Origin: Hyphomonadaceae bacterium
GTDB taxonomy: Bacteria; Pseudomonadota; Alphaproteobacteria; Caulobacterales; Hyphomonadaceae
Reading direction: 5' to 3'
Assembly (NCBI GenBank): GCA_965262255.1
Contig: OZ253505.1
Location: 3,177,406-3,241,405 of the forward strand
Length of the DNA: 64,000 bases
The position numbers were made by a program, and so were the translations under genes. Under the pieces are notes generated by a model. The model was not told the DNA's origin and ran no database searches. It saw only the letters and a list, made by a program, of their open reading frames with translations. How positions within the stretch are numbered: the first letter of the stretch is position 1; each line of letters starts with the position of its first letter. Shown piece after piece: positions 4,006 through 29,736 of the stretch.

Positions 4006-4383
4006 ATGCCTCAAAATCTCGCAGTTGGACTTCACCAACGCACAAAGGTTCTTACGAAAGCCGTGATTCGTTCGGCTGACTTGCTGGGGATACAGGAGCA
4101 TGATCTTGCACTAATTCTAAAACTTCCAGAACAGTGTATTCATCAAATGGCTAACAATCAGTACTGGCTGGAAGAGGGTTCGAAGCCCTTCAAAAATGCC
4201 GTTAAACTAGTGCGGCTATTCCGTTCTTTAGATTCTATCACGGGTGGAGATAGCGAAATTGCAAAAAATTGGCTACTTTGTCATAACATTGTTTTAGGCG
4301 GTCGCCCAATAGATAAAATTAAAACTGATTCAGGACTTGTAAATGGCATTACCTACTTGGATTCCCGACGCGCTCCGCTCTGA
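4006..4383 (+). CDS. Xre/DUF2384-type antitoxin (ParS/MbcA-like)
   Basis: The C-terminus IAKNWLLCHNIVLGGRPIDKIKTDSGLVNGITYLD matches the Wl..pn..LgG..P.d...t..G toxin-binding domain pattern. It sits immediately upstream of a RES gene. Confidence 0.8.
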   Translation: MPQNLAVGLHQRTKVLTKAVIRSADLLGIQEHDLALILKLPEQCIHQMANNQYWLEEGSKPFKNAVKLVRLFRSLDSITGGDSEIAKNWLLCHNIVLGGRPIDKIKTDSGLVNGITYLDSRRAPL

Positions 4384-5104
4384 ACAGGGTTCGCTGGAAA
4401 AAAAATTATGGCGGTGCGTTGAGGCTCAACACATCGTCTCTACAATGAAGATTGTCAGTTCGTTGCCAGAACAGTATTTGCTTGAAGATATACTTGAGGA
4501 AGATAAGCCAGAAGTACCAAACGAGTGCAATGGTCTACATTATCTGTTTATGACACCTTTTCGATACGGGTTATACAAAAACGGATCCCGTTTCCGGCGG
4601 GCTGGGTTCACTTCGGGGGTCTTTTATTCTTCTGAGAGTCCGTCCACTGCTTTGTTTGAGACAGCATTTCATTTGTTTTTGTTTTACGCAGAATCAGAGA
4701 ACCTTTCTTTTCCATCTCAACCAAGCGAACATACGATTTTTGATGTGCCTGTTAAATCGAAACATGCGATTGACCTGACAAGAACCCCATTTAATAATGT
4801 TGCACCACTATGGACACATCGTACAAACTACGAACCGTGCCAGCAACTGGAGGAAATTGCGCGTCAACAGGGCGTTCAGCTAATTCGTTATTCATCGGTG
4901 CGTGACCCGGATAGAAAGGCGAACGTTGCGATTTTGAACTGTAGCGCCTTCGCCTCGACAGCACCAAAGGAACAACAAACTTGGCAGCTTTCAATTAACA
5001 GTAAAGGTCTAGACGCTTTCTGTAGATTCAGAAACGAAAGAATCAGTGTCTCCTCAGTCGATTTAGTTGCTGATGAACGACTTAGGAAGTTGTGGACTTC
5101 TTGA
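4343..5104 (+). CDS. RES-domain toxin (NAD+-targeting family)
   Basis: The R, E and S landmarks are present: GSRFRRAG, FYSSESPSTALFE, LIRYSSVRDPDRKANVAILN. It overlaps the antitoxin 3' end by 41 nt if the start is at 4343. Confidence 0.85.
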   Translation: MALPTWIPDALRSEQGSLEKKLWRCVEAQHIVSTMKIVSSLPEQYLLEDILEEDKPEVPNECNGLHYLFMTPFRYGLYKNGSRFRRAGFTSGVFYSSESPSTALFETAFHLFLFYAESENLSFPSQPSEHTIFDVPVKSKHAIDLTRTPFNNVAPLWTHRTNYEPCQQLEEIARQQGVQLIRYSSVRDPDRKANVAILNCSAFASTAPKEQQTWQLSINSKGLDAFCRFRNERISVSSVDLVADERLRKLWTS

Positions 5105-5114
5105 ACTATATTTG

Positions 5115-6057: not shown

Positions 6058-6390
6058 TCAATCTAACTGTCGTAAATCATTGGGTGCGATTTCATGGAGA
6101 GTGCAAATCCTTAGAATAGTTTTGTCGATTAGCAATTGAATCTCGCTAAGATTTGCTCCCGTAGAGCAACGCTCAGCAACCAACAACTCCGCCAAATAAT
6201 GACAGAGCCAACGGCTTAGGACATTTCCTCGTGCGCTAATCTTCATTTTTTGAAAAATTCTTTCTCCAAGTGCCAAAGTTTCGTTCGGCGCCTTCAATCT
6301 CTCCAGATCCTCTGAGGAGCAAGATTCGCACGAATGTAACCTCATTTTCGCTTTTTGAACCAGATAAATGCCTTTGTTGCTGTCGCTCAT
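6058..6390 (-). CDS. Small conserved protein overlapping the 3' end of the giant STAND gene
   Basis: The ATGAGCGA start and the 155-nt out-of-frame overlap are both conserved in the paralogous locus (22231..22599). The non-overlapping part is conserved at protein level: RWLCHYLAELLVAER vs RWLCHYLSELLITER. Confidence 0.65.
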   Translation of the reverse strand: MSDSNKGIYLVQKAKMRLHSCESCSSEDLERLKAPNETLALGERIFQKMKISARGNVLSRWLCHYLAELLVAERCSTGANLSEIQLLIDKTILRICTLHEIAPNDLRQLD

Positions 6391-9300: not shown

Positions 9301-12300
9301 TTTGCGCTGCTTCGCGTACCTTCAGGTAGAAAGACCTATACAATTCTTTGTGAAGTAGGATCCTAGGAGCAATCCTTGTTAAGTTCAGTAACCATTGATT
9401 GCCGGACACAGTCCAAATTGCGGTCATTACGTCATTTTTTAGTCTTTGTTCTTTCAACAACACGGTTAAACTATATGCTGCTCGAGATCTTAACATCGCG
9501 AAGTCATGATCCAGATAGTTTTGCCACCACCCAGATTTAAGTTCTCGGCAACTCTCGTGAAGTAACTCAGTTACTTGATTTGACGGAACCTTACCTGCGA
9601 GTATTCGGGCTCTCGCAACATAAACCTGACCTATCACCGAAACTTGCTCTCGAAGTCTCCGATCGCGTTGCTTGACTTCATAGTTATGTTGATTCCGTCC
9701 ACCTTTTTGAGATTCAGGGCGGTCAATCAGAATTTTGGACAAATCAGTTTGTTTGTCCTCAAGACAATTCGAAAGTGTAAAACATCGGACAATTGCATCG
9801 ATTAGAGAATCATCGTGTTCCTTCACTTGGTCGATTCGGCGAATCTTTGGATCCAGAAATAGTTCCAAAACCTGATTAACAACTTTGTTTTCCTTGTCGG
9901 ATGCCGATAAAATCTCAACACCTGTTAGCAACGTGTCGAAGATATAAGACACAAGAGCATTGTTTTCAAATGTTCTGCTTAACACGGGAGATCTGATATT
10001 CAATCGTCGTAGTAGAATTTTGAGTCCGAGTGATAACCGGGCGTGGTCGATCTTACGTCCGGCCAAAGCAAGGGAAACAAGTACAAAAATTGACTTTGAA
10101 ACTGAAAGCGATTCCGCTAGCTGCTCCATTAACTCGAAACGACGCTCTTGTCCCAGTCTTTCTATAAGAAGCTTGGCCGAAAGAACTAAAGATCTAAGTG
10201 GACGAATACGGCGAAGTCTTGCAATGGTTGCCTTCGCGCCAGATTCAAGTAATTCAGTGTAGAGTAAGCAAGCCATGTCCGCAGCGGATAAAACCGGGTC
10301 GATCGAAGTATCAGTTTCATTTTCGTCTGTTTCGAGATCGTATATTCGACGACTGAGCCAAGATTCAAATCGCCTTCTAAAATCACGAACTCCTATGAAA
10401 TCTTCATTTGCAGCACACTCAGCCATCATGTGAATTAGCAGTGGGCCTTGATTTTCCGTCTGTTGAGGATCGCTCAGAATTAGTCGACTACCTGACTCTG
10501 GAGCATGTTTGGCCGTCAATTGGGGATTTTCCGTAAGAAGTGACTGTAATATTGCTTCATTCTTCATCGCCTCCGCCCCAAGGAGTACGAATCGGAGAGT
10601 TCTTTCAGATTTTCCTGCGTCGCGACAAACACCTATTGCTAACTTCAGGCGCTGTGTTCGAACCTCTTGTCTTATCACAAGTTCAGCAACGGCATGGGCA
10701 TCTGGTTCTGGATGTTTTTGGACTAACTTCAAAAGACGTTTATGTTTTTTGGCAAGCTTCAACATCGGTGCAACGTTTATTGCTGCGTATTCGTCGGTTT
10801 TGTGCCTAGTCAGGAAGCGGTCTGCAACAGATGTCAACATGTCATCTATAAGAGGATCAGCAAATTTTCTAACGTACGCTTCAATATCTTCGTCAGCAAA
10901 TGTAACAAAATCGCCTTTAGATTTTACTCCGGGGTCTAAATCTATACAAAAATCTTTAGCAGCTTCCTGATCGATTTCCAAAACCTCTGCAATCTCGCAA
11001 ATTGGAATAGGTCTCGGCAAAACCGCTATACAAGCACAGAACTTTTGCAGTTCTATCTTTATTCCCGCTTTTTTTCGTGCATCTTGGAAAATACCATCAA
11101 ATATCTGGTTCAGATCCTTACCCGAAGGTTTCAGTAGATCAATTCTCTTTTCTATCGGCAGGGTAGGGCGTTCTAGCGCATAACCTTGCATCCTTGGAAC
11201 GCCATCTGAAAGTTCGTGGAGCTCATTTATCCAACCCTGAGGAGCATCCCAGTATCCTCGGGCATTTGCCGCTGTCTCTTCTAGAACAAATTTCTCTAAT
11301 TCAATTTTCACATAATCGTCTGGTATTTTTAGTTGTTCCAATCTGCCGCTTCGCGCACTAACTATAAATCGAACATTATTGGGAAGAACTTCATAAGACA
11401 TAAAATCGTAAATAAAATTTCTTTCGACTGAGCCTCTTTCTCGCGCAGCATTCTCAGAGTTGTCAGCCGCATCTATAGCAATCAACAGTAACGCCTCGCT
11501 GCTTCTTAAAGAAATTAGTTTTGCGAATTTTTCGAGTCGATGTCGAAAAACTTTAGCGTAATCAGTATCAGCACGTGCTGATAACAACAATGGCATTCGC
11601 AAGCGAATCGCGATTTCGTTACACATCTGTACGAATGCATCCTGCGGTCGATGGCGTAGCGAACTAGCATCAAGATACGACCCTCCTCCGTAGCAATCGA
11701 AGATCACCATCTCAGATTCTTCTGGTAGACACTTCTCTAATTGCGCCAACGTTGTCGTTTTACCAATGCCGGCCGCGCCATGAAGGCAAATCTTCTGTTT
11801 TCCAGCCAGCAATTGTTTGGTAATGTTTTTGGTGGAACTTCGCTTGACACAAGAATCGCTACTCTTGATCTTCGACGGACAAGGGAGCAACGCTCGCAAA
11901 TCCGAAACTCCGAACTGAGCTAAAACCCTACCACGATCTATATAGTCGTTAGAGCTGTCCGATATCATCTGACGGCGAACCATTTCCCGAAGTCGGCGCG
12001 TTACTTCTGCGGATTCGATTTCAGTCCATTGGGCAACCTCGTCAAAAATTTTGCATTCAAACGCAAATCGTGATCCTGCCTCGCCTGATAAGTCAAGAAC
12101 CTTGGCAAATTCTTGAAACTCATCGGCGGAAAGACCGCTCGCCTCAAAAATCCTACGAAGATTATTATAGTCCTGACTTTGAGAATTACGTCTTTTAGCA
12201 TGTAGCCCTTGCCGCGCAGATTCTATCGCCGCCAACAAACCGTCACAAACAGGTTGATTCGTTATCAATGATACTCCTATGGAACTGAAATCTTTTTCTG

Positions 12301-12661
12301 GTCTTTCTGCTTTCAGTTGCAAGTACGCCGTTGCGAGTTTTGCGATCAGCGATTTCGAAGGTTTGCCGTTTTTACCTCGAGAAATTTCTGCGATCGTCCA
12401 TTTTCTAACTGTTTTTGCCCTCGAGTACTTTAATTGCTTAATTTCGACCCGGTCAGCGTCGGAATTTGTTGTCCCGCCAAAGTACAGCGCGCAATCGACT
12501 CCATGCCATTTGAATTTCTTGTTCGAGGAATTGGTTCCTTCAATCTTTATAGCATCTAGACTTGATTCGTGATCAAGAAGGCGCAAACATTCACGAGTGG
12601 CCCAAAGCTCGTGAAATTCGTGACCAGCATTTGAACTGCTTGCTCCAGTAAGCTCTATCAC
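6236..12661 (-). CDS. Giant STAND-type NTPase with N-terminal PD-(D/E)xK-like (DUF4297/Cap4-like) domain and long helical C-terminus (Avs-like)
   Basis: GTG start. The N-terminus reads GHEFHELWA...GVDCALYF...DRVEIKQLKYS. Walker A is LHGAAGIGKTT (about 11755..11790) and Walker B is LLLIAIDAADN (about 11463..11495). RFIVSAR follows. More than 1500 aa of helical repeats include the HEAT-like DLRVRWRAAHAVRRLARLGE. Confidence 0.8.
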   Translation of the reverse strand: MIELTGASSSNAGHEFHELWATRECLRLLDHESSLDAIKIEGTNSSNKKFKWHGVDCALYFGGTTNSDADRVEIKQLKYSRAKTVRKWTIAEISRGKNGKPSKSLIAKLATAYLQLKAERPEKDFSSIGVSLITNQPVCDGLLAAIESARQGLHAKRRNSQSQDYNNLRRIFEASGLSADEFQEFAKVLDLSGEAGSRFAFECKIFDEVAQWTEIESAEVTRRLREMVRRQMISDSSNDYIDRGRVLAQFGVSDLRALLPCPSKIKSSDSCVKRSSTKNITKQLLAGKQKICLHGAAGIGKTTTLAQLEKCLPEESEMVIFDCYGGGSYLDASSLRHRPQDAFVQMCNEIAIRLRMPLLLSARADTDYAKVFRHRLEKFAKLISLRSSEALLLIAIDAADNSENAARERGSVERNFIYDFMSYEVLPNNVRFIVSARSGRLEQLKIPDDYVKIELEKFVLEETAANARGYWDAPQGWINELHELSDGVPRMQGYALERPTLPIEKRIDLLKPSGKDLNQIFDGIFQDARKKAGIKIELQKFCACIAVLPRPIPICEIAEVLEIDQEAAKDFCIDLDPGVKSKGDFVTFADEDIEAYVRKFADPLIDDMLTSVADRFLTRHKTDEYAAINVAPMLKLAKKHKRLLKLVQKHPEPDAHAVAELVIRQEVRTQRLKLAIGVCRDAGKSERTLRFVLLGAEAMKNEAILQSLLTENPQLTAKHAPESGSRLILSDPQQTENQGPLLIHMMAECAANEDFIGVRDFRRRFESWLSRRIYDLETDENETDTSIDPVLSAADMACLLYTELLESGAKATIARLRRIRPLRSLVLSAKLLIERLGQERRFELMEQLAESLSVSKSIFVLVSLALAGRKIDHARLSLGLKILLRRLNIRSPVLSRTFENNALVSYIFDTLLTGVEILSASDKENKVVNQVLELFLDPKIRRIDQVKEHDDSLIDAIVRCFTLSNCLEDKQTDLSKILIDRPESQKGGRNQHNYEVKQRDRRLREQVSVIGQVYVARARILAGKVPSNQVTELLHESCRELKSGWWQNYLDHDFAMLRSRAAYSLTVLLKEQRLKNDVMTAIWTVSGNQWLLNLTRIAPRILLHKELYRSFYLKVREAAQIWQKDRTGAYEKSQCLMSLAELLIPISSDESKIIFNKSIDVAGDISSEIADVIRLFDILVRFGLTSMSENRSKFATALTLIVENAYRRVKYAHHFPWREALSSIARLDANIALASIAKWHDQGIVSLENNLARIVHIATSTNQISCSAGHALMIIAETTKPEDVEKMIDITEEQDSCVGIAEEVRLDLLSNRIDCTDRIKDFVSKYCTGISNARLTQYFEFKKSLPAAKNDNDVGQQLHKKQFASLDSHHWDREDLLSGRRLKVRADAIIRICRENKENVSLEMVLESATNKVAFGDSINHLEALMEVQENCPDESIMNVITDTVAKWKAQDAVLEWYRNELPRIISLYFATDFNFLHGVDKRLSEILNLSKASNEQAVEILLDVIQRNGEKLSSRVTLAIAGIIASKQEPASAAKLFEWYVDRLLTSIRKDDREMEVRDAIPTSANETVARFIYAFLGDIDLRVRWRAAHAVRRLARLGESDLIDCIWRQWGRMSEPVFRSPEEPFYWISARLWLVIALSRISEESPKEIASLGQELFEIAVSDDFPHVLIKAYARDAALELHSSGFLSLGKDEISNLEKVNQSPLARADNVDLEEEDVRVTIDLLLNGGQKQKEQTRFDFDGLDTLRYWYEPWTRIFEGLSNNDFQRIAERWIIDKWGYIGKESNGSRHFRSVRFKKYHSERTTNSHGHLPTVEHYRTYLEWHAMWCTVGELLSSHKLSKPRYEGDEGLADQISCGMLSFPPVWLSDMVGLRPLNLKHWCSPNSFSTNWFSSIDDEEFIAELMPSDRPDYLVVHASTETKWRNHQEVVQIFSSLVSPQTAHSLVNALQTAQYTSDYYLGPEGSRSDITEDGFELKSWLVQPDGNLGLDSKDSLCQDIGNIAIMPGTIAQRSLELTRTYSPNLAWYRKGHKLPSFIYEAWGERVQSDSNLRIVEGVVSSGHRLLARRRDIAKLLEIEKFDLITEVGVTRNERQQQRHLSGSKSENEVTFVRILLLRGSGEIEGAERNFGTWRKNFSKNED

Positions 12662-16898: not shown

Positions 16899-17399
16899 AT
16901 GAACATATTTGCGGGGGCGTTCCTAACTCTTTTCCATTCCCCCTATAACAATCTTGTTGCAAAAATATTATTTTCCGTATATCAACGCTCAAATCTACGA
17001 TGGGTTCACAAAAATCCCACACGTGTTGAGCGTATACATATGCCAGATTTACTTGTAGAATGGGCGAAGGATATTCGTCATGCGAATTGGCACCGATTAC
17101 TTGAGCTAAACGTTTCAAGTGTAACAGGAGCCGGTGTCTATCTTATATGGCATAGCGGGACTGCGCCGAACGTTGTTTACGCTGGAAAAGGCAATCTTGC
17201 GGAACGTTTAAGGAAACACCAGTCGGATTCTGACATCCTCAGATTTGGGGAAAGAGGGACGCTTCTAGTATCTTGGGGGATTGTTCCTTCACATCGATTC
17301 GCTGGGGTCGAACGTTACTTAATTGAATATTACCGCCCAGCCCTGAACAAGCAGGTTCCTGAAACGCCTCCGGTTGCTGTCAACCCTTTGGTTTGGTAG
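16899..17399 (+). CDS. GIY-YIG domain protein (small, stand-alone)
   Basis: GAGVYLIWHSG..VVYAGKGNLAERLRKH ... ERYLIEYYRPALN follows the GIY-YIG pattern. The start is more likely the ATG at 17040. Confidence 0.6.
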   Translation: MNIFAGAFLTLFHSPYNNLVAKILFSVYQRSNLRWVHKNPTRVERIHMPDLLVEWAKDIRHANWHRLLELNVSSVTGAGVYLIWHSGTAPNVVYAGKGNLAERLRKHQSDSDILRFGERGTLLVSWGIVPSHRFAGVERYLIEYYRPALNKQVPETPPVAVNPLVW

Positions 17400-17729: not shown

Positions 17730-19230
17730 AAAATTAGGGAATTACTTACTTGTTGACACATAATGATGGAAATTAGTCCTTGTTAAAGTGTTGGTGACGG
17801 GGTAAACTCTCGTACAAAAATGGAGTTGCACCGTGACCACCCAAAAACTTTCGGTCATACAAATCGCCCGTAAATTCCCGGACAACGAAGTTGCGGAGAA
17901 TTGGTTTATCAAACATCGCTGGAAGAACGGCGTGGAATGCACTCATTGCAATAGCAAGCGAGTGACTGAGCGTCGGAAGGCAGGCAAGCGAGCGTTTCGA
18001 TGTAAGGATTGTCGCAAGGATTTCAGTTCTAAGACGGGTTCGTTAATGCACGATTCGAAGATTGGTTTTCGTGAATGGGCTATCGCGATCTTCCTGATGG
18101 CGATTAATATCAAGGGAACATCTAGCACCAAGTTAGCCCACGATCTAGGTATATCTCAGAAGTCGGCTTGGTTTATGGCTATGCGTATTCGTGAGGCTTA
18201 CCAAGGTGATGATCCGATATTGCTAGAGACTGCTGTAGAAGTTGATGAAGCCTACTTTGGCGGAGTTGAAAAGAATAAACACGAAGACAAGAAGCTGAAT
18301 AAAGGCCGCGGTGCAGTTGGCAAGATGGCGGTTGTAGGTATCAAGGAACGTGAAACAGGCCGTTTAGTTGCGAAACCCGTCTCTGATACGTCCAAAGAGA
18401 CACTGCAAGGCTTCATTCAAGATAATGTCAAAGAAGGTACTCATGTCTATACAGACGAGTCCAAGTCCTACGACGGACTAGAAGATAACGGCTACGAACA
18501 CAGCACGGTCAAGCATTCGGCAGGAGAATGGGTGAAAAAGCAAGCGCACACGAATGGCATTGAATCGTTCTGGGCGTTACTCCGAAGATCGTATCATGGG
18601 ACTCACCACTGGTTGTCGGCTAAGCACCTAGCCTCTTACGTCAATGAGTTCGCTACCCGCTCTAATCTGAGGGGTGAAAACACAATGAACTTCATGGGTC
18701 ATATAGTTCGTGAGATGTCGGGGAAGCGGTTGTCGTGGAAGGAGTTGGTAGCACGAGGACCTGTTCCAGCAGGGTAAGATCACTTATAGGTATTGACGAC
18801 ACACTGGAAAATGTTGCGAACACACTATGCCAGTCGGTGAAGGTAATCGGCAGGTATACGAGACAAAAATCTAGAAAACAACCTACTTGTCGACATCAAC
18901 GGAGAGTAACTCCCTTATGCAAGTAGTAATCGTTGAATAAAGTATTTTGTAGAATTCTAGGGAGTTACGATTTTGCTACAGCAGAATCAGCGGATTAGTT
19001 TGACACTAATCACTTACTAGCAACTAAGCACACTGACAAAATCTCATCGCAGAACCGAATTCGTTTGCGACGAAGCGTTGAATTGGCTGTTTTATTGAAT
19101 GCCGCGTACGTTCTCGAGAACTCTTCCATTTCCGAATTCTTCATAGACTCTTATCTCTTGGTCCAAAATCAAGTATCCAGCTCGTGGAAGCTACCACTAT
19201 GTGTCAACAAGTAAGTAATTCCCCAAAATT
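17730..19230 (+). mobile_element. IS1595-family IS (ISXO2-like) with a roughly 450-bp non-coding tail
   Basis: The terminal inverted repeats are aaaattagggaattacttacttgttgacac (17730) and gtgtcaacaagtaagtaattccccaaaatt (19201..19230). Confidence 0.8.
17833..18777 (+). CDS. IS1595-family transposase
   Basis: The N-terminal zinc-ribbon is CTHCNS...FRCKDCRKDFS. EVDEAYFGG and HTNGIESFW blocks are present. Confidence 0.85.
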   Translation: MTTQKLSVIQIARKFPDNEVAENWFIKHRWKNGVECTHCNSKRVTERRKAGKRAFRCKDCRKDFSSKTGSLMHDSKIGFREWAIAIFLMAINIKGTSSTKLAHDLGISQKSAWFMAMRIREAYQGDDPILLETAVEVDEAYFGGVEKNKHEDKKLNKGRGAVGKMAVVGIKERETGRLVAKPVSDTSKETLQGFIQDNVKEGTHVYTDESKSYDGLEDNGYEHSTVKHSAGEWVKKQAHTNGIESFWALLRRSYHGTHHWLSAKHLASYVNEFATRSNLRGENTMNFMGHIVREMSGKRLSWKELVARGPVPAG

Positions 19231-19449
19231 AAGTGAAAGTTTCTTTCTCTAGCCTATCCACTTGATGTTAGTCAGTCGGCTTCCCAAATTGCAAACTCAG
19301 ATTATTGCCGAAAATTTGAGTTTATAAAAACTGGCATTCGACGATATTCTATGCAATTTCTGCTTTGTCTATGGTATAACTTGTTATACTTTATCGGTGT
19401 AAGCTGACGGTTTTGCCTTATTTGAGTTTTATAGCCCCGGAGTATTTAG

Positions 19450-20835
19450 ATGAATGCGCGCTTTGATACAGCGAATATGACTTCTAACAGGAAGTACAGG
19501 TACGAGGGCCTGCGCCTTCGTTGGTCAAGAAAGTATCTTGGATATAGCCGCGCACAGGTTTCGTCGGCACTCAGCATTGAACAGTCACAGCTCGCTGCGA
19601 TAGAAATTGGGATTCGTAAGGCAAACAATGAATTTCTTGCAAAATTCTCACGCCTTTATGGTCGACCAGTAGATTGGCTCGCGAGCAACGCGAAGCTTGA
19701 CAGCGTTGAAACAGAGAATCCAAGTAGCTATAATCCTTGGCAGTTTTCCGAGGAAGACCGCTTAGAATTTCGCAGTTTCAGGCAAGTTATTGAAAGCACC
19801 TCTTGGAAGGTAAAATTCAAAGAAAAGGTAGAGGCGTTAAGTAGCTTATTTGATCGCAGTGCCTGCGTAGAAGAAGTACATGAATCACTTAACACCTTTG
19901 AAACAGCTTTAAGATCGGGGTACGTCGATATTTTCGAGGCAATATCTGGTGTAGGCGTAGCGACAATTTTTCGACCATTAGGATTCTTGGGTGCTTTGTT
20001 TGGAACGGATAAGTGTTCCGGCTTAATGTTGTCAGTTTCGAAGTCTTTAAACGAATTGCGCCTAGCTGCTGCTAGCGCCCTTGCTAGGCTTACGGCTAAT
20101 AACCTGCACGAAGAGCTGACTCTTACCAAACTCTGGTATTCGCTGTCTCCAGAAAATGAGTTACGAGAAACAGACGAGAAAAACTTCAGAATATCGTTAA
20201 ACTTATTGCTACCGAACTTCCTTCTTGTCGAAACTCAGAAAAGATTCAATTGGTCTAATCGTGATATGGCTTCTCCTATCAATATGTATCAAGCGTCGTT
20301 GCGACTTGGTGCTAGTTATAGCGCAACGACAATCGCATATTGCCAATTAGGGGTGATATCAGAATTGGAGGCGAAAAAACTGTTGAACGAAAGCTTAGTC
20401 AATATCAAGCAAGCTATTTTGCAGAATTATTTGCCGGATAACATAAAAGATATTAACGTATGGCTGCTTACTCGGAGTGAAGAAGGATCGGTTATTCGGG
20501 CGAATCCTAATGATGTTTTTGTTATAAAACTTAAAGAAAATCGTGCAGCGGGCTATCGTTGGGATTTTTCTAAACTTGAAAAAGAAGGGTTTTCGATAAT
20601 TAATGATGAAAGCTTGAATTTAGACGCGCATCGAGTGGGAGCGCTGAGCCTTCGTTCTGTTCTGGCGAATCCTGCAACACTTCGAGAAGGCGACTTAGTT
20701 TTGGAGGAGTCATGTCCCTGGGAGAGAGTCCCCACGGAACCCAATGAGATTCTAGTCCCATATCGAAGATTACCTCAGTTTAAGATTGGTCTTTACGGTT
20801 CTGAATCACTTCATAACCAAAGTTTGGCCGACTAG
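19450..20835 (+). CDS. XRE-HTH / degenerate ImmA-IrrE-like middle region / C-terminal chagasin-type (I42) cysteine-peptidase inhibitor fusion
   Basis: HTH: LGYSRAQVSSALSIEQSQLAAIEIG. Middle region: QASLRLGASYSATTIAYCQLGVISE, with no HExxH seen. The C-terminus carries the three chagasin loops: LKENRAAGYRW (NPxTGYxW-like), HRVGALS (GxGG-like) and SCPWE (RPW-like). Confidence 0.65.
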   Translation: MNARFDTANMTSNRKYRYEGLRLRWSRKYLGYSRAQVSSALSIEQSQLAAIEIGIRKANNEFLAKFSRLYGRPVDWLASNAKLDSVETENPSSYNPWQFSEEDRLEFRSFRQVIESTSWKVKFKEKVEALSSLFDRSACVEEVHESLNTFETALRSGYVDIFEAISGVGVATIFRPLGFLGALFGTDKCSGLMLSVSKSLNELRLAAASALARLTANNLHEELTLTKLWYSLSPENELRETDEKNFRISLNLLLPNFLLVETQKRFNWSNRDMASPINMYQASLRLGASYSATTIAYCQLGVISELEAKKLLNESLVNIKQAILQNYLPDNIKDINVWLLTRSEEGSVIRANPNDVFVIKLKENRAAGYRWDFSKLEKEGFSIINDESLNLDAHRVGALSLRSVLANPATLREGDLVLEESCPWERVPTEPNEILVPYRRLPQFKIGLYGSESLHNQSLAD

Positions 20836-20836
20836 A

Positions 20837-21484
20837 ATGGACGTAGTTGTAGATTTCAGTGACCGATTCGGTGAAATAGGCGATCAGGGGAGGCGCTTGA
20901 CGTGCCTTGTATTTGCTTCAACAGCAGCACATGAGTATTGTCAGAATTCTGATCAACCTCTTTGCCTAGAATGGTTGTATTTTCACGCTATAAAGATCGG
21001 TGGAAGTATGCTTGGAGATGGCACACGGGTCGAGGATATTTCAGTCGCACTGCAGCACCATGGTCAGCCATATGAAAGGGTTTGGCCATACGACAAAGCT
21101 ACAAAATTTCTGAATTGGATGCCGCCCTTTTATCCAGGACACCGCTACTTTGCTGAAGGGGCATACAATGATTTCGATCTCAAGCACATCCTGACTACAC
21201 TGGATCGTAGAGTTCCTATAGTAATTTCGTTTTGGAACGACAGAGAATTTGAAGATCCAAAAACTGTTGGTGAGTATTCTTTAATCGAGCAGCGGCGCGA
21301 AAAGTCTTCGTCTAGTTTGCATGCGGTTTTGGCGGTTGGATATGGTTATAAGAACCAAACTTTATACGTAAAGGTGCGAAATTCCTGGAGTAGGAATTGG
21401 GGAGTAGAAGGTTATGGTTGGGTAAGCGAGCATTTTCTGGAGCTTAGTGGTGTTAAAACTTTTCAGTTATGCGCGGTGAACTAG
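20837..21484 (+). CDS. Papain-like (family C1) cysteine peptidase without signal peptide or prodomain
   Basis: GDQGRRLTCLVFAS supplies the Gln and the catalytic Cys (codon 20903). LHAVLAVGYGY supplies the His (codon 20320+1000, i.e. 21320). RNSWSRNWGVEGYGW supplies the Asn/Trp block. The ATG lies 1 nt after the upstream stop. The track ORF starts at 20786. Confidence 0.75.
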   Translation: MDVVVDFSDRFGEIGDQGRRLTCLVFASTAAHEYCQNSDQPLCLEWLYFHAIKIGGSMLGDGTRVEDISVALQHHGQPYERVWPYDKATKFLNWMPPFYPGHRYFAEGAYNDFDLKHILTTLDRRVPIVISFWNDREFEDPKTVGEYSLIEQRREKSSSSLHAVLAVGYGYKNQTLYVKVRNSWSRNWGVEGYGWVSEHFLELSGVKTFQLCAVN

Positions 21485-21499: not shown

Positions 21500-22385
21500 T
21501 TTAGATGTTTTGCCCGAAAATCTTGTTAGTTATCTTCTTTCACATCTGCCGGTCTGGCTTTCTGATTTCGTTGGTGTCAGGCCACTATAGGTTGCACGTT
21601 GGTATCAACCGAATCACGTGCCATCGGACTAGTTCTCACGAATATCCGATGAGGAATTTTTAAAAGAGTTGCTACCTAATGACCGGACAGATTATATCGT
21701 TGTCGATGCTCGTTTCGAGACTAGTTGGATTCGTTACAAAGAAACTATCGAGATTTCTTCAGCATTGGTATCTCCTGATACAGCCCACACGCTAGTGAAC
21801 GCCATACAAACTGTAGAGTTTTCTAGCGACTATTACCTTTGTCCGGAAGCAAGCCCAAGCGAGATATCGGAAGTTGGTTTTGAGTTAAAAGGTTGGCTAA
21901 AGTCTCCGGCAGATTGTTCAGGCTTTGACGATAAAGATCCGTTTTGTAACGAAGTACGGCCGATTGTTATGAGGCCCGGTGAATTCGTTACTAATAGTCT
22001 CGGTCTTACAGTAGATTGCATCTGAAGCCTGTTTTGGTATAGAAACGAACGGGCAGACCCAAGCTTCATATATGAAACTTGGGGAATGAAGAAGCTCGAT
22101 TACTCTAGAGTCAATAATGGTAATGGAGTTGTTTCATGAAGTCATCGATTGCTCGTGCGTAAGGAAGATTTGGAATTTTTTCTAGCGGCAGAGGTTTTTG
22201 ACTTGATCACCAGGGTAGGAGTAAAGCGTTATGAGCGAAAAAATCGACAAAGTTTACATGGTTCGGAAGGCGAACTTCGAGTTACTTTCGACAGAGTCAT
22301 GCTACTCAGAGGAAACAGTGAAATTGAAGGCACCAAACGAAAGTTTGGCTCTTGGCGAGAGAATCATTCGACTGCTAAAGATTAG
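21500..22385 (+). pseudogene. 3' remnant of a second giant STAND gene (paralog of 6236..12661)
   Basis: LPVWLSDFVGVRPL*..SRISDEEFLKELLPNDRTDYIVVDA...LVSPDTAHTLVNAIQT... aligns to the last 290 or so aa of the giant protein. It has in-frame stops at about 21584, 21632 and 22023, plus a frame change. Confidence 0.8.
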
Positions 22386-22599: not shown

Positions 22600-22758
22600 T
22601 GTAAACTGCTGCGAAACGACGTCACAATCCAATGTCTTCCAGCATAAATTTCCGGACTATTGGTTGTAAAATCATAAGTTAACACGTAAATTCCAGATTT
22701 CCCCCACAATCCTACAGAATCGCCAAATTGTGACAGATTATCGTTCTGGAGGAGTATT

Positions 22759-23568: not shown

Positions 23569-23794
23569 ATGCAATCATGCCGTAAACGAGAAAACATCTA
23601 CAGGAAGAAGGCCAAAAACCGATCGACACTCTAGAACTAACCTGTTGCATAGTCTTAGGTAGTTCAGCAGAAATTTGGTGCAGAGACCTTGCCTTCGTGT
23701 TAATAGAGGGAAGTCAGTAGATTCTAATGAAGGACAGGTTAACAAATTTTCCGCTTGTCAATTGTATAAGTTTAAAGTAAAAATTCTTAGTGAT

Positions 23795-26644
23795 ATGAAT
23801 ATTTCATTCTTTGAAGAACCGATCCTAAATTCTCCTTACGAAGAGCCATCAAGACATCATGCGCTTGATGAAGAAGGTCAACCGACCAATCAGCCTCCTA
23901 TACTGGGGCAACGACCGTCAGCTCTATTATCACCGGTTCCAAAGCCAAAGAGACGACGGTCCGGTAATTCAGTCGACGACCAAAGAAATTTGAAACTTTA
24001 TGCCGATGACGGAATTTCATCCGAAGACCAAGAGTACAATCCGACACCAGTTATAAATGATATCCGTTCACAAGTTAAACAGTGGCGATCTATTCCGAAC
24101 CCCAAAGATTGGCATGTAACACCTGCTACAGAGCGATTGCTACAACATTGGCGACACTATGAGTTCCAAGGTTTAAGGCCCTTTTTCTGTCAGGTCGAAG
24201 CAATTGAAACTATCATTTGGTTGACAGAAGTCGCTCGTAGAAACAAAATACACAAGCGGGTTTGGAGTCATATTGAAAGTGCGAACGCGAGTGCAAACCC
24301 TGAGCTTTTACGTCTGGCGATGAAAATGGCGACAGGTGCTGGGAAGACCACCGTAATGGCGATGATTATCGCATGGCAGACGATCAATGCTGTCCGTTCT
24401 CCAAAAAGTAAACTGTTTACACGAGGATTTCTTGTAATAGCGCCCGGTATAACCATTAAAGATAGGCTTCGCGTTCTGCAACCGAGTGATCCAGACAGTT
24501 ATTATAAGAATCGTGAACTTGTGCCTTCAGGAATGCTAAATGACCTTTCCAAAGCAAAGATTGTTATAACAAATTATCATGCATTTCAATTGCGTGAATT
24601 GATGGAGACGAATAAGACTGCCCGTTCCTTGCTTCAAGGACGATCTAAACCGATTCAAAGTACTGAGACAGAAGGTCAAATGATCCGCCGAGTTGCGGAC
24701 AGTCTTATGGGGATCAAGAATATAGCTGTGATTAACGACGAAGCGCATCACTGTTATCGTGAAAAGCCAGATGGCGAACAGGAGAAGCTCAAAGGTGACG
24801 AACGAACAGAAGCCATGGAAAATAGCAAGGCGGCTCGTCTATGGATAAATGGGATCGAGGCTTTTAAACGAAAGTTGGGAGTGCGGGCAGTTTATGACAT
24901 GTCGGCTACTCCATTCTTCTTGAGTGGTTCTGGTTGGGCAGAGGGAACGCTGTTTCCATGGACTGTTAGCGATTTTTCATTGATGGATGCTATCGAATGC
25001 GGAATAGTCAAGCTACCTAGGATTCCGGTGGATGATGATATCCCTGAAGAAGATATGCCCATCTTCCGAAACCTATGGGATCACATCGGAAAAGACATGC
25101 CCAAAAAGGGTGGGCTCACGTCTGACCCTAACGATATTCCCGATAAGCTAAAGACTGCCTTAAATTCACTCTACTCTCACTATAGAAAAGTATCGAAAGA
25201 CTGGGAACAAGAAGGGATCGATGTTCCTCCTGTATTTATTGTAGTATGTAATAATACGACTACATCCAAGTTGGTTTACGAATGGATTTCGGGCTGGCAA
25301 CGAGAAAATAATGATAGTGGCAGCATTATTTGTAACCGAGGCCATTTACCTCTTTTCAGAAATTTTGATGAAAATGGACAGACGTTAGCACGACCGAATA
25401 CCCTGCTGATCGATAGTCGGCAGATTGAAAAGGGCGAGATTGATAAAAAATTCCGTGACATAGCTGCTCCCGAAATCGAGAAGTTTAGGCAGGATAGGAA
25501 ACTTCGCGGGGAGCATGGCGAAATTTCGGATTCAGAACTTCTGCGAGAAGTTATGAATACTATTGGTAAGAAAGGTCGACTGGGCGAGCAAATTCGTTGT
25601 GTCGTTTCAGTTTCAATGCTGACAGAAGGTTGGGATGCTAACACAGTAACTCATATACTGGGAGTGCGAGCTTTTGGCACTCAGCTTCTTTGTGAGCAAG
25701 TGGTCGGGCGAGGGCTAAGACGTTTAAACTACGAACTCAATGAACAACGTCAATTTAACGTTGAGTACGCCGATATTATGGGAATCCCCTTTAGTTTTAT
25801 TAGCAGACCAGTTGTCGCTCCGCCAAAGGCTCCCAAAAGGCCCAATCATGTTCATGCGGTGAAAGAAAGAGCTTCGCTAGAAATTCAGTTCCCGCGAGTG
25901 GTTGGGTATCGCATAGACTTACCAAGAGAACGTTTAAGGGCTAAGTTTACCGAAGACTCTTCTTACGTAATTGAACAAGAGAAAATCGGTGCAAGCGAAA
26001 CAGATATGTCTGGTATAGTTGGTGAGGGGCATACGCTTAGACTAAGTGAAGCTCAAGAAACTCGACGAAATAATGTTATAATGAATTTTTCAGTATTTGT
26101 GATGAATCGACATTTTGTCGATAAAGACAATAACCCAGAAATTAACCTCTTGCCCCAAATCCATAAAATATGTCGTCGCTGGATTGATGAAGGATATTTA
26201 GAATGTCCGGGAGAGACAGGGCTATGGATGTTGACAGCCTATCCTGAAATTTCTGCGCAGGCTGCCGAACGAATTTATAATTCGATACTACGGGCTGACG
26301 ATGGCGATGGACAAATTAAAGCAGTTCTGGACCCTTTTAACCCATTAGGTTCAACTCGCAACGTAAATTTCTCGACAACTAAAAATGTATGGAGAACCGA
26401 TGCACGTAAAAGTCATGTCAACTACGTAGTGTATGACAGCGACTGGGAAGCAAAGTTTGCCCGCGTTGCCGAAAGCCACCCGAATGTTATGGCATATGTG
26501 AAAAACCAAGGACTCGGGTTTACTGTACCATATCGAGATGGCAACGTAGCCCGGGAATACCTTCCAGACTTCATTTTGCGGATTCATGATGGGGGGGGGG
26601 GTAGAGGATCCCTTAAACCTAATCGTCGAGATCAAAGGTTATAA
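23795..26644 (+). CDS. res: Type III-like restriction enzyme Res subunit (helicase body), reading frame lost at a G11 tract
   Basis: MNISFFEEPILNSPYEEP is a typical N-terminus, and the track ORF starts upstream at 23675. Walker A is MATGAGKTTVMA. The DEAH box is VINDEAHHC. Helicase motif VI is QVVGRGLRR. The frame ends 43 nt after the G tract. Confidence 0.85.
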   Translation: MNISFFEEPILNSPYEEPSRHHALDEEGQPTNQPPILGQRPSALLSPVPKPKRRRSGNSVDDQRNLKLYADDGISSEDQEYNPTPVINDIRSQVKQWRSIPNPKDWHVTPATERLLQHWRHYEFQGLRPFFCQVEAIETIIWLTEVARRNKIHKRVWSHIESANASANPELLRLAMKMATGAGKTTVMAMIIAWQTINAVRSPKSKLFTRGFLVIAPGITIKDRLRVLQPSDPDSYYKNRELVPSGMLNDLSKAKIVITNYHAFQLRELMETNKTARSLLQGRSKPIQSTETEGQMIRRVADSLMGIKNIAVINDEAHHCYREKPDGEQEKLKGDERTEAMENSKAARLWINGIEAFKRKLGVRAVYDMSATPFFLSGSGWAEGTLFPWTVSDFSLMDAIECGIVKLPRIPVDDDIPEEDMPIFRNLWDHIGKDMPKKGGLTSDPNDIPDKLKTALNSLYSHYRKVSKDWEQEGIDVPPVFIVVCNNTTTSKLVYEWISGWQRENNDSGSIICNRGHLPLFRNFDENGQTLARPNTLLIDSRQIEKGEIDKKFRDIAAPEIEKFRQDRKLRGEHGEISDSELLREVMNTIGKKGRLGEQIRCVVSVSMLTEGWDANTVTHILGVRAFGTQLLCEQVVGRGLRRLNYELNEQRQFNVEYADIMGIPFSFISRPVVAPPKAPKRPNHVHAVKERASLEIQFPRVVGYRIDLPRERLRAKFTEDSSYVIEQEKIGASETDMSGIVGEGHTLRLSEAQETRRNNVIMNFSVFVMNRHFVDKDNNPEINLLPQIHKICRRWIDEGYLECPGETGLWMLTAYPEISAQAAERIYNSILRADDGDGQIKAVLDPFNPLGSTRNVNFSTTKNVWRTDARKSHVNYVVYDSDWEAKFARVAESHPNVMAYVKNQGLGFTVPYRDGNVAREYLPDFILRIHDGGGGRGSLKPNRRDQRL

Positions 26645-26837
26645 AAGAGAGCAAGTTAAACTCAAGAAGGATACCACGATCGAGAAATGGGTTCCCGGAG
26701 TGAATTCATTGGGTATTTATGGTCGCTGGAAATTTGTTCAGTTTGAAGACATACTCGAAATAAAAGAAAATTTCTTTGCGTTCGTTGAACGTTTAAAAGA
26801 AAACTATAGTTCAAAGAAGGAGGCTAAGAATGGCTAG
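26586..26837 (+). other. res: Displaced C-terminal segment of Res (PD-ExK nuclease motif) in the +1 frame
   Basis: DPLNLIVEIKGYKRE...GRWKFVQF is the usual Res C-terminal ExK nuclease block. It is reached in frame only if the tract is G10. Confidence 0.8.
26591..26601. repeat. G11 homopolymer inside res
   Basis: Counted directly: gat + 11 g + tag. Confidence 0.95.
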
Positions 26838-29736
26838 CAATAGCAGTTCCAATCCTAAGAAGGTAGAATCACTACAACACAAAGGTGCGAAACGCAGGAT
26901 AATACCTACTGCCGAGTTGCAATCTACCGCTGAAGATATAGAAAAACAGGATCCGTTTGAACCTGTAGTTTATAGACGAAATAGCCGATTACCTAAGGGA
27001 GAAAAGTATCAACGCGATGAGGATATTGATCCACAGATCATTTGGAAAGGAGCCAGCGTTCGCCTAAACAAGGATCAAGCCGAAGACTTGAAGCTAGGTA
27101 AAGAGATAGAGTTGGGTGAAGCTCAGCTGACGTGGCGCGGTAAGGACGCTCAGGACTGGTCGGACCTCGTTGTTCAAGCTCCACCTCTTTACATACAGGA
27201 GAAAATTCATCCTAAGCAAATCATAAAAGATCTTGAAGTGCAGACAAAGGCTCGCCGGCAGGAGGAAGGGGAGATGTTTGACTTCTTTGGTGACTTTAAC
27301 GGAATTGACCCTGGCACAAAGACAGAGTTTTATAAACACGATCAGAATTGGCAAAACCGGTTGATTCTTGGTGATAGTCTGCAAGTTATGGCAAGCCTTG
27401 CCGAACGGGAGAATCTAAAAGACAAAGTCCAATGCGTATTTATTGACCCGCCTTACGGAATTAGTTTTGGTTCGAATTGGCAGGTTTCCACTCGTTCTCG
27501 ATCAGTAAAAGATGGCAATCTCGAGGAAATCACGCGAGACCCTGAGCAAGTAAAAGCTTTTCGTGATACTTGGAGAGACGGAATCCACAGTTATCTCACT
27601 TATTTGCGAGATCGACTAACAGTCATCAAAGATTTGCTCAATGATTCGGGTTCAATTTTCGTCCAAATTGGCGACAAGAACGTACATAGGGTTCGTTGTC
27701 TTCTAGATGAGGTTTTCGGAGAAGAGAATTTTGTGTCGTCCATCAATTTTCGCACAATGAGTCCTTTGAGCGCGACCAACATAACCAATGTCTATGATCA
27801 TATTCTTTGGTACGCAAAGTCGTTGCCTGTAATGAAGTATCGAAACATTTACCAAAGCCGAGAAATTTCTGATGAACCGGAGTTTAGATTTGTTTCAGAT
27901 GAAGCTGGTTACGCGCATGAGATTAAGAAATCTCAAGATGTACTTGAGGCTAACAAAGATAAAGTATTTAAACGGTCGGTTTTGATGTCATCTGGCTTTG
28001 GGCCAACCTGTTTTTATCCGTTTGAGTTTGAAGGTAAAACTGTGCCAGTAGCCCAAAAGAGTTGGAGAACACACCGTACTGGTATGCAACGCTTAATCAA
28101 GGCAAATCGCCTGATCAGGTTAGGGAAAAGTGTCTATTTTCGACATTACCATAACGATTTTGGTTTAACCCACTTGGAAAACACTTGGACTGATACTGCG
28201 GCCGGATTCTCAGAAACGAAAATTTATGTAGTCCAAACACATCCTAAAGTTGTCCAGAGGTGCTTATTGATGACGACAGACCCTGGTGATCTTGTTTTAG
28301 ATCCAACTTGTGGATCTGGAACAACCGCTACATCAGCGGAACATTGGGGACGGCGTTGGATTACGATTGATTCTTCTCGAGTTTCGTTAGCATTGACTCG
28401 GACAAGGCTAATGGCATCGAAGTATCCCTATTATTATTTGGCGGACTCTAAGGACGGCGCAGTCTACCAGCAAAAAGTAAGTGGTGTGGCGACGGCAAAC
28501 GAGCATTTTGGAGAAGACATTAGACAGGGATTCGTGTTGCAACAAAAACCTAGGGTATACCTAAAAGATTTTGCCAATAACACCGAGATTGATGTCATTT
28601 GGGATAAATGGCAACGGCAATTAGAGGATATCCTTGAGGAATTGAATAACTCGTTAGGAGAAAAATGGAGAGACTGGGAGATTCCTCGCGAACCGAGAGT
28701 AGATTGGTCGCAAGAGGTTAAGAATCTACACGGAGATTACTGGGATGTTCGGACTAAACGTCAGCAAGAAATCGAAAAGTCAACGGCAGAGAAAGCAGAG
28801 ATAAAACATCTTTATGATAGACCCTATGAGGACAAGTCGAAAGTTCGTGTAGCCGGACCATTCACTGTCGAAAGTTTATCACCCCACAGAGTTATTCCCT
28901 CTGACGAAGACGGTTCTGTTGATATTAACGACGGTTTGAGTAGCACTCATTCGTCAATCAAAACTCCTAGTCAAGATTTCGCATCTATTGTGCTGGAGAA
29001 CTTGAAATCCTCTGGTGTACATCAATCTAAAAAGCGGGATCGAATTGCGTTTACAGATATTGAGGGCTGGCCGGGTGAGAATATTGCTGCTCAAGCTACG
29101 TTCGAGCAGGACGGAACGCCAAAGACAGCTGCAATTTTTATAGGCCCCGAATTCGGTACAGTTACTAAGCGAAATCTGGAGGTGGCTGCAATAGAGGCTA
29201 TAGAAATCCAGTGCGATGTTTTGATTGCTTGCGGATTCAACTTTGACGCTCACGCGTCGGACTTGAACAACTCGGGAACTTTACCAATTCTGAGAGCTAA
29301 AATGAACCCTGATCTTCACATGTCGGATGATTTGAAGAATACGGGGAAAGGAAACCTTTTTGTAGTTTTTGGTGAGCCTGATATTGAGTGGAGGTTTGAC
29401 GGTGACGGAAATATGGTTGTAGAAGTTCTGGGTATCGATGTGTATGACCCAAAAACGGGAGGAGTTCGGGCATCCGGAAAAGACGATATCGTGGCTTGGT
29501 TTATCGACACAGATTACAACGAAGAAAGTTTCTTTGTGCGTCATGCTTATTTTTGGGGTGCCAATGACCCGTACGGCGCGCTCAAAACCACCCTTAAAGC
29601 TGAGATTGACGAACAGGCATGGTCTACAGTTTATTCAGATGTCTCTCGTCCATTTAAGCGTCCATCAAATGGTTGCTTTGCAGTTAAGGTTATAAATCAC
29701 TTTGGGGATGAAGTGATGAAAGTCTTTAGAGTGTGA
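26830..29736 (+). CDS. mod: Type III-like DNA methyltransferase Mod subunit (N6/N4 beta-class motifs)
   Basis: Motif IV is VFIDPPYGISF and motif I is VLDPTCGSGTTA. The start overlaps the res tail by 8 nt (ATGGCTAG). Confidence 0.9.
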   Translation: MASNSSSNPKKVESLQHKGAKRRIIPTAELQSTAEDIEKQDPFEPVVYRRNSRLPKGEKYQRDEDIDPQIIWKGASVRLNKDQAEDLKLGKEIELGEAQLTWRGKDAQDWSDLVVQAPPLYIQEKIHPKQIIKDLEVQTKARRQEEGEMFDFFGDFNGIDPGTKTEFYKHDQNWQNRLILGDSLQVMASLAERENLKDKVQCVFIDPPYGISFGSNWQVSTRSRSVKDGNLEEITRDPEQVKAFRDTWRDGIHSYLTYLRDRLTVIKDLLNDSGSIFVQIGDKNVHRVRCLLDEVFGEENFVSSINFRTMSPLSATNITNVYDHILWYAKSLPVMKYRNIYQSREISDEPEFRFVSDEAGYAHEIKKSQDVLEANKDKVFKRSVLMSSGFGPTCFYPFEFEGKTVPVAQKSWRTHRTGMQRLIKANRLIRLGKSVYFRHYHNDFGLTHLENTWTDTAAGFSETKIYVVQTHPKVVQRCLLMTTDPGDLVLDPTCGSGTTATSAEHWGRRWITIDSSRVSLALTRTRLMASKYPYYYLADSKDGAVYQQKVSGVATANEHFGEDIRQGFVLQQKPRVYLKDFANNTEIDVIWDKWQRQLEDILEELNNSLGEKWRDWEIPREPRVDWSQEVKNLHGDYWDVRTKRQQEIEKSTAEKAEIKHLYDRPYEDKSKVRVAGPFTVESLSPHRVIPSDEDGSVDINDGLSSTHSSIKTPSQDFASIVLENLKSSGVHQSKKRDRIAFTDIEGWPGENIAAQATFEQDGTPKTAAIFIGPEFGTVTKRNLEVAAIEAIEIQCDVLIACGFNFDAHASDLNNSGTLPILRAKMNPDLHMSDDLKNTGKGNLFVVFGEPDIEWRFDGDGNMVVEVLGIDVYDPKTGGVRASGKDDIVAWFIDTDYNEESFFVRHAYFWGANDPYGALKTTLKAEIDEQAWSTVYSDVSRPFKRPSNGCFAVKVINHFGDEVMKVFRV

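Follow-up and report, generated by a model that had tools for sequence, protein, structure and literature searches.

Why would a DNA-binding protein end in an inhibitor of papain-like peptidases, and why would the gene directly behind it encode such a peptidase? The question is raised by two adjacent genes, here called A and B, of a Hyphomonadaceae bacterium, located in a 64,000-nucleotide stretch of contig OZ253505.1 that was analysed as a whole (hereafter, the window). Gene A encodes an XRE-type helix-turn-helix (HTH), a catalytically dead domain related to the ImmA/IrrE (M78) metallopeptidases and a chagasin-family (I42) domain in one protein, and gene B encodes a short papain-family (C1) cysteine peptidase. 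An earlier interpretation based on the letters and open reading frames (ORFs) only (the sequence-only reading) had proposed a protease-based toxin-antitoxin (TA) or abortive-infection module. The reading we favour, with a probability of about 0.5, is a mobile protease/inhibitor module that regulates its own expression and is of the same kind as the Xre–COG2856 (Rosmer-like) TA systems. Judging from its relatives, the pair does not stand alone and represents a rare fused branch, with a dead metalloprotease domain, of a large mobile family.

Domain composition of the two proteins

C1 peptidases are inhibited by chagasin-family proteins, three loops of which enter the active-site cleft; a chagasin/ICP domain with these three loops had been recognised at the C-terminus of A. 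Profile, structural and alignment evidence agree with this assignment. A profile of 19 family members of A matched EhICP2, a solved chagasin-family inhibitor, over residues 338-436 (E 8.8e-11). The ten best PDB matches found by Foldseek for the AlphaFold model of A (pLDDT 83.6, pTM 0.84) all belong to the chagasin family (TM 0.69-0.78 on the target, probability 1.0) and comprise EhICP2, amebosin and chagasin, the latter free or complexed with cathepsin L or falcipain; XRE repressors ranked next. In an alignment of 29 distinct I42 domains of the family with chagasin, the motifs NRAAGYRW, VGALS and CPW of A align with NPTTGFAW, LGAGG and RPW of loops L2, L4 and L6, respectively. Very few positions never vary across the 29 family domains, and these include the G-Y of L2, the G of L4 and the W of L6; the profile alignment with EhICP2 is independent of the chagasin sequence used. 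The Pfam model Inhibitor_I42 (PF09394) aligned with residues 353-428 of A at 25.9 bits (E 1.2e-5; cut-off 27.2), and a relative from Haloarcula reached 43.5 bits on the same model.

At the other end of the protein, residues 20-77 exceed the Pfam cut-offs of HTH_31 (28.9 bits against 27) and HTH_3 (26.6 bits against 23), confirming the N-terminal XRE HTH that had been read in this 461-residue protein. Its nearest solved relative, according to the 19-member profile, is ImmR, the repressor of ICEBs1 (E 1.3e-8), and its modelled fold resembles SinR, C.AhdI and ImmR in Foldseek. The linker between the HTH and the remainder of A is of low confidence in the AlphaFold model. The product of gene A is predicted to be a cytoplasmic DNA-binding protein.

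The region between these two domains had been read as ImmA/IrrE-like but devoid of HExxH, and it gave no Pfam M78 match in the window protein. The reading is upheld by alignment: A aligns over its full length with relatives that match PF06114, and the HELGH of these relatives corresponds to AASAL in A. HELGH is kept in all relatives of the split type, in which the HTH is encoded by a separate gene (see below), and HExxH is missing from every fused relative of the window clade. Many residues of the dead domain are invariant in the alignment, e.g. the NxYQASLRLGASY block, which indicates a retained non-catalytic role. We therefore regard the middle domain of A, on the strength of its alignments, as a homologous pseudo-enzyme of ImmA/IrrE that has lost its zinc site. 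Considering the Pfam families in which the sequence-only reading was expected to find support, HTH_3 and Peptidase_C1 (in B, below) were above their cut-offs, while Inhibitor_I42 fell just below and Peptidase_M78 was not matched.

XRE/ImmA pairs are signal-responsive repressor/protease switches. The likeness of A to such pairs opens an alternative that we consider unlikely, namely a regulatory protease switch with no toxin, where the C1 peptidase would replace the dead M78 domain as the repressor-cleaving protease and the module would control how the genes of a mobile element or island are expressed, as in ImmR/ImmA and CapH/CapP. The cut would likely fall in the disordered linker, at residues 85-95, and the I42 domain would serve as a built-in brake and docking site. 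The closeness of the HTH to ImmR and the low-confidence linker are in line with this alternative, as is the coincidence of HExxH loss with the fusion in the window clade, since another protease would then be needed for cleavage. However, a substrate would not be expected to carry a domain that binds the active site tightly and inhibits the protease.

A single 'a' separates the TAG stop of gene A (20833-20835) from the ATG of gene B at 20837; this 1-nt gap suggests translational coupling. The 215-residue protein with papain layout that had been read at this point is supported by its Pfam match, its profile, its fold and an invariant catalytic tetrad. Peptidase_C1 (PF00112) scored 43 bits against a cut-off of 20.7, with only residues 151-199 in the aligned part, and the profile of the B family aligned residues 13-207 with xylellain (E 8.7e-17) and also matched mite and mammalian C1A enzymes. 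The model of B (pLDDT 95.3) displays the two-lobe papain fold and superposes over its full length on Der p 1, xylellain and cathepsins K, S, L and H (Foldseek, TM 0.70-0.77). Among 35 relatives of B, no variation occurs at Gln17, Cys23, His162, Asn182 and Ser183, the first four of which are also invariant in a set of 7; Trp184 is present in at least 90% of them, and the papain spacing is kept, with the Gln six residues ahead of the Cys, followed by HAV and NSW.

The 35 relatives also share a common start, 16 residues ahead of the catalytic Gln as in mature papain, which leaves no space for a propeptide. The N-terminus of B is acidic (MDVVVDFSDRFGE) and not signal-like, so that B is predicted to lack a signal peptide. 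The only longer ORF, from a TTG at 20786 (232 aa), adds 17 codons that all lie within gene A, and public gene calls contain the 215-aa form, not the 232-aa form. The catalytic cysteine is the only conserved one in the family, with no conserved disulfide cysteines among the 35 relatives, which fits a reducing cytoplasm. B thus departs from the zymogen layout of C1A enzymes (signal peptide, I29-type propeptide, disulfides), which is typical of the family, not required. Altogether, B is predicted to be a complete, catalytically equipped papain-family peptidase of the cytoplasm, and the statement that it has neither signal peptide nor prodomain holds.

Protease-inhibitor operons are established in Staphylococcus and Streptococcus, where a cysteine protease is co-transcribed with a specific cytoplasmic inhibitor (staphopain/staphostatin, SpeB/Spi); these proteases are secreted zymogens of families C47 and C10, and their inhibitors do not bind DNA. 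By analogy, B could be exported by non-classical secretion while A protects the producer as a cytoplasmic safety inhibitor, and characterised bacterial chagasin homologues do act outside the cytoplasm (bioRxiv 10.64898/2026.06.02.729523). In contrast, B has no signal peptide, pro-region or conserved disulfide cysteines and the same start throughout its 35 relatives, and its presumed inhibitor is fused to a DNA-binding domain. Moreover, the distant C1 peptidases found on Bacillus and Clostridium plasmids are longer (267-284 aa), lie in unrelated contexts and have no A-like partner. We consider an exported protease highly improbable.

Linkage of A and B and their wider family

A word-indexed search recovered 22 full-length relatives of A at 38-58% identity, and nine distinct fused-type loci, the window included, were examined. 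An intact B-like gene lies 1-10 nt after A, or overlaps it, in seven of the nine (the window, L001, L002, L004, L006, L040 and L042), and both A and B are decaying in L008. The ninth locus, L041, carries an intact fused-type A of 449 aa (6001-7350), an 'orphan' inhibitor-repressor near which no trace of a C1 peptidase gene was found. When genome loci were retrieved via B alone, domain hidden Markov models identified the HTH, the M78-like domain, the I42 domain and the C1 peptidase in the same order in 20/20 of them, spanning Litorimonas, Devosia, Aminobacter, Sphingomonas, Rhodobacteraceae, Woeseiaceae, Solimonas and Acidobacteriota. The same order recurs on an archaeal plasmid and on one viral contig, and no B-family member without an I42-bearing partner was seen in the fused loci, the 20 genome loci, the plasmid or the viral contig. 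The pairing, whose survey had been proposed as a check, is very strongly conserved. That A occurs once without B, and B never without A, fits the dependency of a toxin on its antitoxin, within a small sample.

The layout of the pair is that of type II TA systems: co-oriented genes, a 1-nt gap, an HTH-bearing partner, a B gene that is never alone, and varied flanks. These flanks differ from one fused locus to the next and often include zeta toxin, RES, AbiJ, VapB, AAA_13, restriction-modification (R-M) and integrase genes. The idea of a non-functional relic was rejected, both ORFs being intact and the catalytic and loop residues being kept down to 28-30% identity.

The sequence-only reading had overlooked a further gene of the conserved fused-type neighbourhood, a small GIY-YIG-like gene located 5' of A in 7/9 fused-type loci, the window included. 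Its homologues in L002, L004, L006 (frameshifted), L008, L040 and L042 are 42-49% identical, and no such gene is present in split-type loci. The Pfam GIY-YIG match of the window gene is weak (19.4 bits against a cut-off of 22.6), but an alignment of these ~118-aa proteins shows the GIY, YIG, Arg, Glu and Asn positions. The gap between this gene and A is only 170-650 nt in the other loci; in the window, it holds a transposase gene that is not part of the module. Concerning the regulatory switch discussed above, A, B and often the GIY-YIG-like gene are the only conserved elements of the fused type among varying flanks, and there is no obvious cargo, beyond the module itself, for such a switch to regulate.

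Beyond these loci, an exhaustive HMMER search yielded 204 representatives of A at E<=1e-10, only about ten of which are full-length fusions, and the B profile matched 1428 protein clusters (90% identity), the majority being alphaproteobacterial 'C1 family peptidases' of 226-228 aa. In the split form of the family, a separate gene encodes a 124-aa HTH protein, and the M78–I42 protein has ~336 aa and contains HELGH in every case. This split cassette consists of five genes, coding for a ~110-aa protein, the XRE protein, the ImmA–I42 protein, the C1 peptidase and a 259-aa protein whose gene overlaps the stop of the C1 gene. It usually adjoins a divergent pair of UDG-like and MazG_C genes, in ICE-like (integrative and conjugative element) or plasmid surroundings with ParB_N, DUF736, MobC, Toprim, YAcAr, WGR and large helicase genes. 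The family travels mainly in this split form, on conjugative plasmids and in ICE-like regions, and conjugative plasmids from rhizobia and sphingomonads often carry the cassette. In PLSDB, relatives of B occur on 24 plasmids, 16 of them with an adjacent relative of A, annotated as 'ImmA/IrrE family metallo-endopeptidase' or 'protease inhibitor I42 family protein'; 11 plasmids were typed as conjugative (11/24, all of them among the 16 with an adjacent A relative). All five genes are also found on the Haloarcula marina plasmid NZ_CP100410 (L037, 70258-73341), which indicates that the cassette crossed between domains of life.

Fused intermediates link both forms, with an intact HELGH or HEFGH in P0162, P0178 and P0241 and a half-lost motif, HVLGH, in P0165. 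Judged from these motifs, the window protein is the end of a series leading from split and active, through fused and active, to fused and dead. The ancestral form would be a classic XRE and ImmA pair on ICEs and conjugative plasmids, in line with a regulatory switch. Nevertheless, the split type possesses an active M78 domain for cleavage, yet the C1 peptidase and the I42 domain are always there.

The plasmid distribution bears on a further alternative, in which the C1 peptidase is conjugative cargo, an establishment or anti-defence effector that would degrade proteins of the recipient host. It would be kept off in the donor through I42 and the XRE/ImmA switch, and the window copy would be a chromosomal leftover. 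The conjugation-associated genes beside the split cassette, the proportion of conjugative plasmids and a weak TraG_N-like ORF in the window speak for such a role. In contrast, the fused type is located in chromosomal variable islands near TA and defence genes, not transfer genes, and no secretion or transfer signal is evident. Cargo of this kind would also leave unexplained why inhibitor and repressor are fused in a strict 1:1 operon order with the peptidase, and we find this alternative quite improbable. A phage gene, another idea, was dropped: the scan of viral contigs with B retrieved one contig, carrying the split cassette, and the scan with A none. A scan of JGI metagenomes with the A profile found nothing.

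Several side observations concern the split cassette. The 259-aa protein is encoded directly 3' of the C1 gene, overlapping it, in all 20 split-type loci (e.g. L010 6653-7432, L014 6656-7432, L037 4621-5427), and its gene is absent from the window and the fused type. It carries the invariant motif QCLSFLSF ... YRNHYY; searches gave only a sub-threshold thymidylate-synthase match and no PDB sequence match. P0277 (674 aa) joins M78(HELGH)–I42 directly to a 259-aa protein homologue plus an additional C-terminal region, which hints at a functional association between the 259-aa and ImmA–I42 proteins. The C1 gene of Sphingobium olei (L034, 5992-6351 and 9131-9424) is split by an insertion of ~2.8 kb, and the M78 and C1 genes of L035 are fragmented; the cassette thus decays in some genomes. 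Just upstream of the split cassette of L009, a gene adjoining an integrase (4018-5172, minus strand) shows a weak Peptidase_U49 (Lit-like) match.

Proposed mechanism and relation to known systems

As an autoregulated protease/inhibitor module, the pair could work as follows. A would repress its own operon through the HTH, possibly at a palindrome located upstream of the gene, and the I42 loops of A would plug the active site of B, one-to-one, keeping B inactive. The dead ImmA-like domain would be the sensor of a trigger, or a scaffold. Phage infection, DNA damage, or the loss or degradation of A could then free B, which would cleave cellular or invader proteins, with growth arrest, abortive infection or addiction as the outcome. 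A third component may be encoded by the GIY-YIG-like gene upstream of A, and the module may have originated from the split cassette (XRE repressor, active ImmA–I42, C1 peptidase, 259-aa protein) on conjugative elements. As regards the operator, we estimate that ~0.1 such 7-2-7 palindromes would be expected by chance per 220 nt. The palindrome is not kept in the relatives, whose upstream regions carry other repeats or none, and is a weak operator candidate for this reason. Scans for sigma-70 promoters and terminators at the module gave background levels only.

Several observations weigh against this reading. The I42 score of the window protein is 1.3 bits short of the Pfam cut-off. A has no active Zn site, which both RmrA and ImmA use, and this leaves the release route unexplained. 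The RmrA models of PADLOC match A only at residues 19-81, that is, the HTH (E 1.7e-4 to 0.023). The orphan A was found in a single locus only. Finally, the five conserved genes of the ancestral cassette, located among conjugation and establishment genes, would equally fit an element-regulatory or anti-defence role.

Fusions of Xre and COG2856 with a downstream toxin have been predicted to form three-component TA systems (PMC2701414), and RosmerTA, with an antitoxin made of an HTH and a Zn-peptidase and with varied toxins, acts in phage defence (PMC10440598; bioRxiv 10.1101/2022.05.11.491447). In these systems (Makarova 2009; Millman 2022; Ernits 2023), as in the window, an XRE HTH precedes an ImmA/IrrE-type domain in an antitoxin-like protein, whose gene forms a tight operon with a variable effector gene, is mobile and occurs in defence islands. 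The window module differs in the loss of HExxH, in having a C1 peptidase as its effector and in carrying its own I42 active-site inhibitor domain; the presence of this domain in the partner would offer a concrete neutralisation mechanism for a Rosmer-like module. RosmerTA membership as such fails, as the RmrA match is confined to the HTH, the zinc site is absent and there is no known RmrT: PADLOC gave no system-level match for the pair, and B matches none of its models, hence no known RmrT family. What is new with respect to Rosmer-type and Xre–COG2856 systems is the C1 peptidase in the effector position, the I42 domain in the neutralising one and the pseudo-enzyme in that of the sensor. It is tentatively, and with less than even confidence, that we go further and propose a new class of conflict module in bacteria and archaea, in which a cytoplasmic papain-family protease, as the lethal or defensive effector, would be silenced by an I42 domain fused to an XRE/ImmA-type sensor-repressor.

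Similarly, ImmR/ImmA of ICEBs1, DdrO/IrrE and CapH/CapP resemble the split cassette in their pair of an XRE repressor and an M78 metalloprotease. In contrast to them, A of the window fuses both parts with the catalytic site gone, and the I42 domain and the obligatory C1 gene are traits of the window family that none of these systems has. With the chagasin/ICP inhibitors (chagasin–cruzipain, EhICP2, P. aeruginosa ICP, Pseudomonas Cip1/Cpi1; MEROPS I42), A shares the Ig-like fold and loops L2, L4 and L6, and its target would be a C1 peptidase of the same organism, as in chagasin–cruzipain. The inhibitors known so far stand alone as proteins of ~110 aa, whereas the window domain is the C-terminus of a predicted cytoplasmic repressor. 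The bacterial members characterised so far reside in the periplasm or on the surface or are secreted, and their presumed targets are host proteases, the producers having no C1 peptidase of their own, whereas the I42 domain of the window adjoins the gene of its presumed target; a Pseudomonas chagasin-like inhibitor, for instance, probably targets plant proteases, its producer having no C1 enzymes (bioRxiv 10.64898/2026.06.02.729523). As for B, short intracellular C1A peptidases without signal peptide exist in prokaryotes, with no partner or role assigned (PMC10380794, Kordiš & Turk 2023). B shares the papain fold and catalytic residues with them and with xylellain (PDB 3OIS), its best PDB sequence match, and is distinguished by its start at the mature N-terminus and by its strict linkage to an I42-bearing regulator.

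A full-text literature search retrieved no paper linking chagasin/I42 with HTH, ImmA or COG2856, and none linking ImmA with papain-like peptidases on conjugative elements. Searches of the pair against NCBIfam returned nothing meaningful and against PHROGs only generic regulator and peptidase matches. In public genomes the genes of the split cassette carry individual annotations; as a system, as far as we found, the cassette is apparently undescribed. The sequence-only reading knew of no defence system with this composition, and we found no PADLOC model or paper describing one; nevertheless, the Xre–COG2856/RosmerTA framework fits the pair.

If the proposed TA-like function is true, no endogenous I42–C1 pair in prokaryotes would precede this one, which would also be the first case of a C1-protease 'toxin', and the window clade would illustrate a sensor protease becoming a pseudo-enzyme. 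Prokaryotic chagasin-like inhibitors and short signal-less C1 peptidases were both known, neither with an endogenous partner or role, and they are joined here, and in the large family of this locus, in one operon governed by an XRE/ImmA switch. This provides a testable model for the role of these proteins, in which an HTH–ImmA-type antitoxin would neutralise by occluding an active site, and for an evolutionary path on which an active circuit of two proteases turned into a pseudo-protease fusion. A protease acting as a defence or addiction effector would also extend the effector chemistries of TA and anti-phage systems by a new one.

The surrounding defence island

The location of the pair in a defence island, as had been stated, is corroborated by Avs3, type III R-M, PifA-like, TIR and RES genes (Table 1). 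No rRNA, tRNA or Rfam match was found within the 64-kb window.

Table 1. Coordinates of the two genes, their domains and other features of the window.
Feature	Position	Strand	Details
Gene A	19450..20835	+	461 aa; XRE HTH, pseudo-ImmA/IrrE (M78) and chagasin-family (I42) domain in one protein; from ORF list
HTH domain of A	19507..19680	+	residues 20-77; Pfam HTH_31 and HTH_3 above cut-offs
M78/ImmA-like domain of A, predicted catalytically dead	19750..20439	+	~residues 101-330; AASAL (207-211) in place of HELGH
Chagasin-family (I42) domain of A	20452..20784	+	~residues 335-445; loops NRAAGYRW (L2), VGALS (L4), CPW (L6)
Gene B	20837..21484	+	215 aa; short C1 (papain-family) cysteine peptidase; Gln17, Cys23, His162, Asn182
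Candidate operator, 7-2-7 perfect palindrome	19374..19389	.	GTATAACTTGTTATAC; 76 nt 5' of the ATG of A
Small GIY-YIG-like gene	17040..17399	+	~119 aa from conserved Met; ORF opens at 16899
IS1595-family transposase gene, outside the module	17833..18777	+	between GIY-YIG-like gene and A; Pfam DDE_Tnp_IS1595, 147 bits
Avs3a, intact antiviral STAND gene	6236..12661	-	2141 aa; PADLOC full-length, 704 bits; weak Cap4-nuclease-like N-terminus in Pfam
Second Avs3 (STAND) gene, 3' remnant	21510..22382	+	starts 25 nt past the stop of B; tblastn
Type III R-M pair	23675..29736	+	Res-like helicase, 989 aa; Mod, 968 aa, 1064 bits on PADLOC MTase_III
PifA-like protein	35521..37800	-	380 bits
TIR-domain protein	47642..48622	+	
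RES-domain protein	4343..5104	+	
DNA methylase–HNH fusion	56489..57976	-	
N6 DNA methylase	59859..61283	-	
Transposases	81-971, 17833-18777, 54704-56098		
Weak TraG_N-like ORF	40074..41810		
Ankyrin-repeat protein	13307-14464	-	
Ankyrin-repeat protein	22759-23568	+	hydrophobic N-terminus

The pair had also been described as directly replacing the body of a decayed STAND gene. The 3' stub of such a gene is indeed present behind B, with 49% identity in tblastn to residues 1851-2141 (the last 291) of the intact Avs3, and it is broken by stop codons into ORFs 21669..22025 and 22149..22385 of one frame. No 5' remnant was found by tblastn with the intact Avs3, so that only this part of the description stands. 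The similarity continues past the gene: 21510-22600 of the plus strand is a copy, ~50% identical at the amino acid level, of the 3' end of Avs3 and the sequence just past it, and a second reading frame (22231-22599) also matches 6390-6106.

Homologues of the plus-strand ankyrin-repeat protein are encoded only a few kb away from the A/B module in L006 (10416-11213, 50% identity) and L008 (16504-17242, 45%), and these shared neighbours suggest related host genomes, possibly with a host-associated lifestyle.

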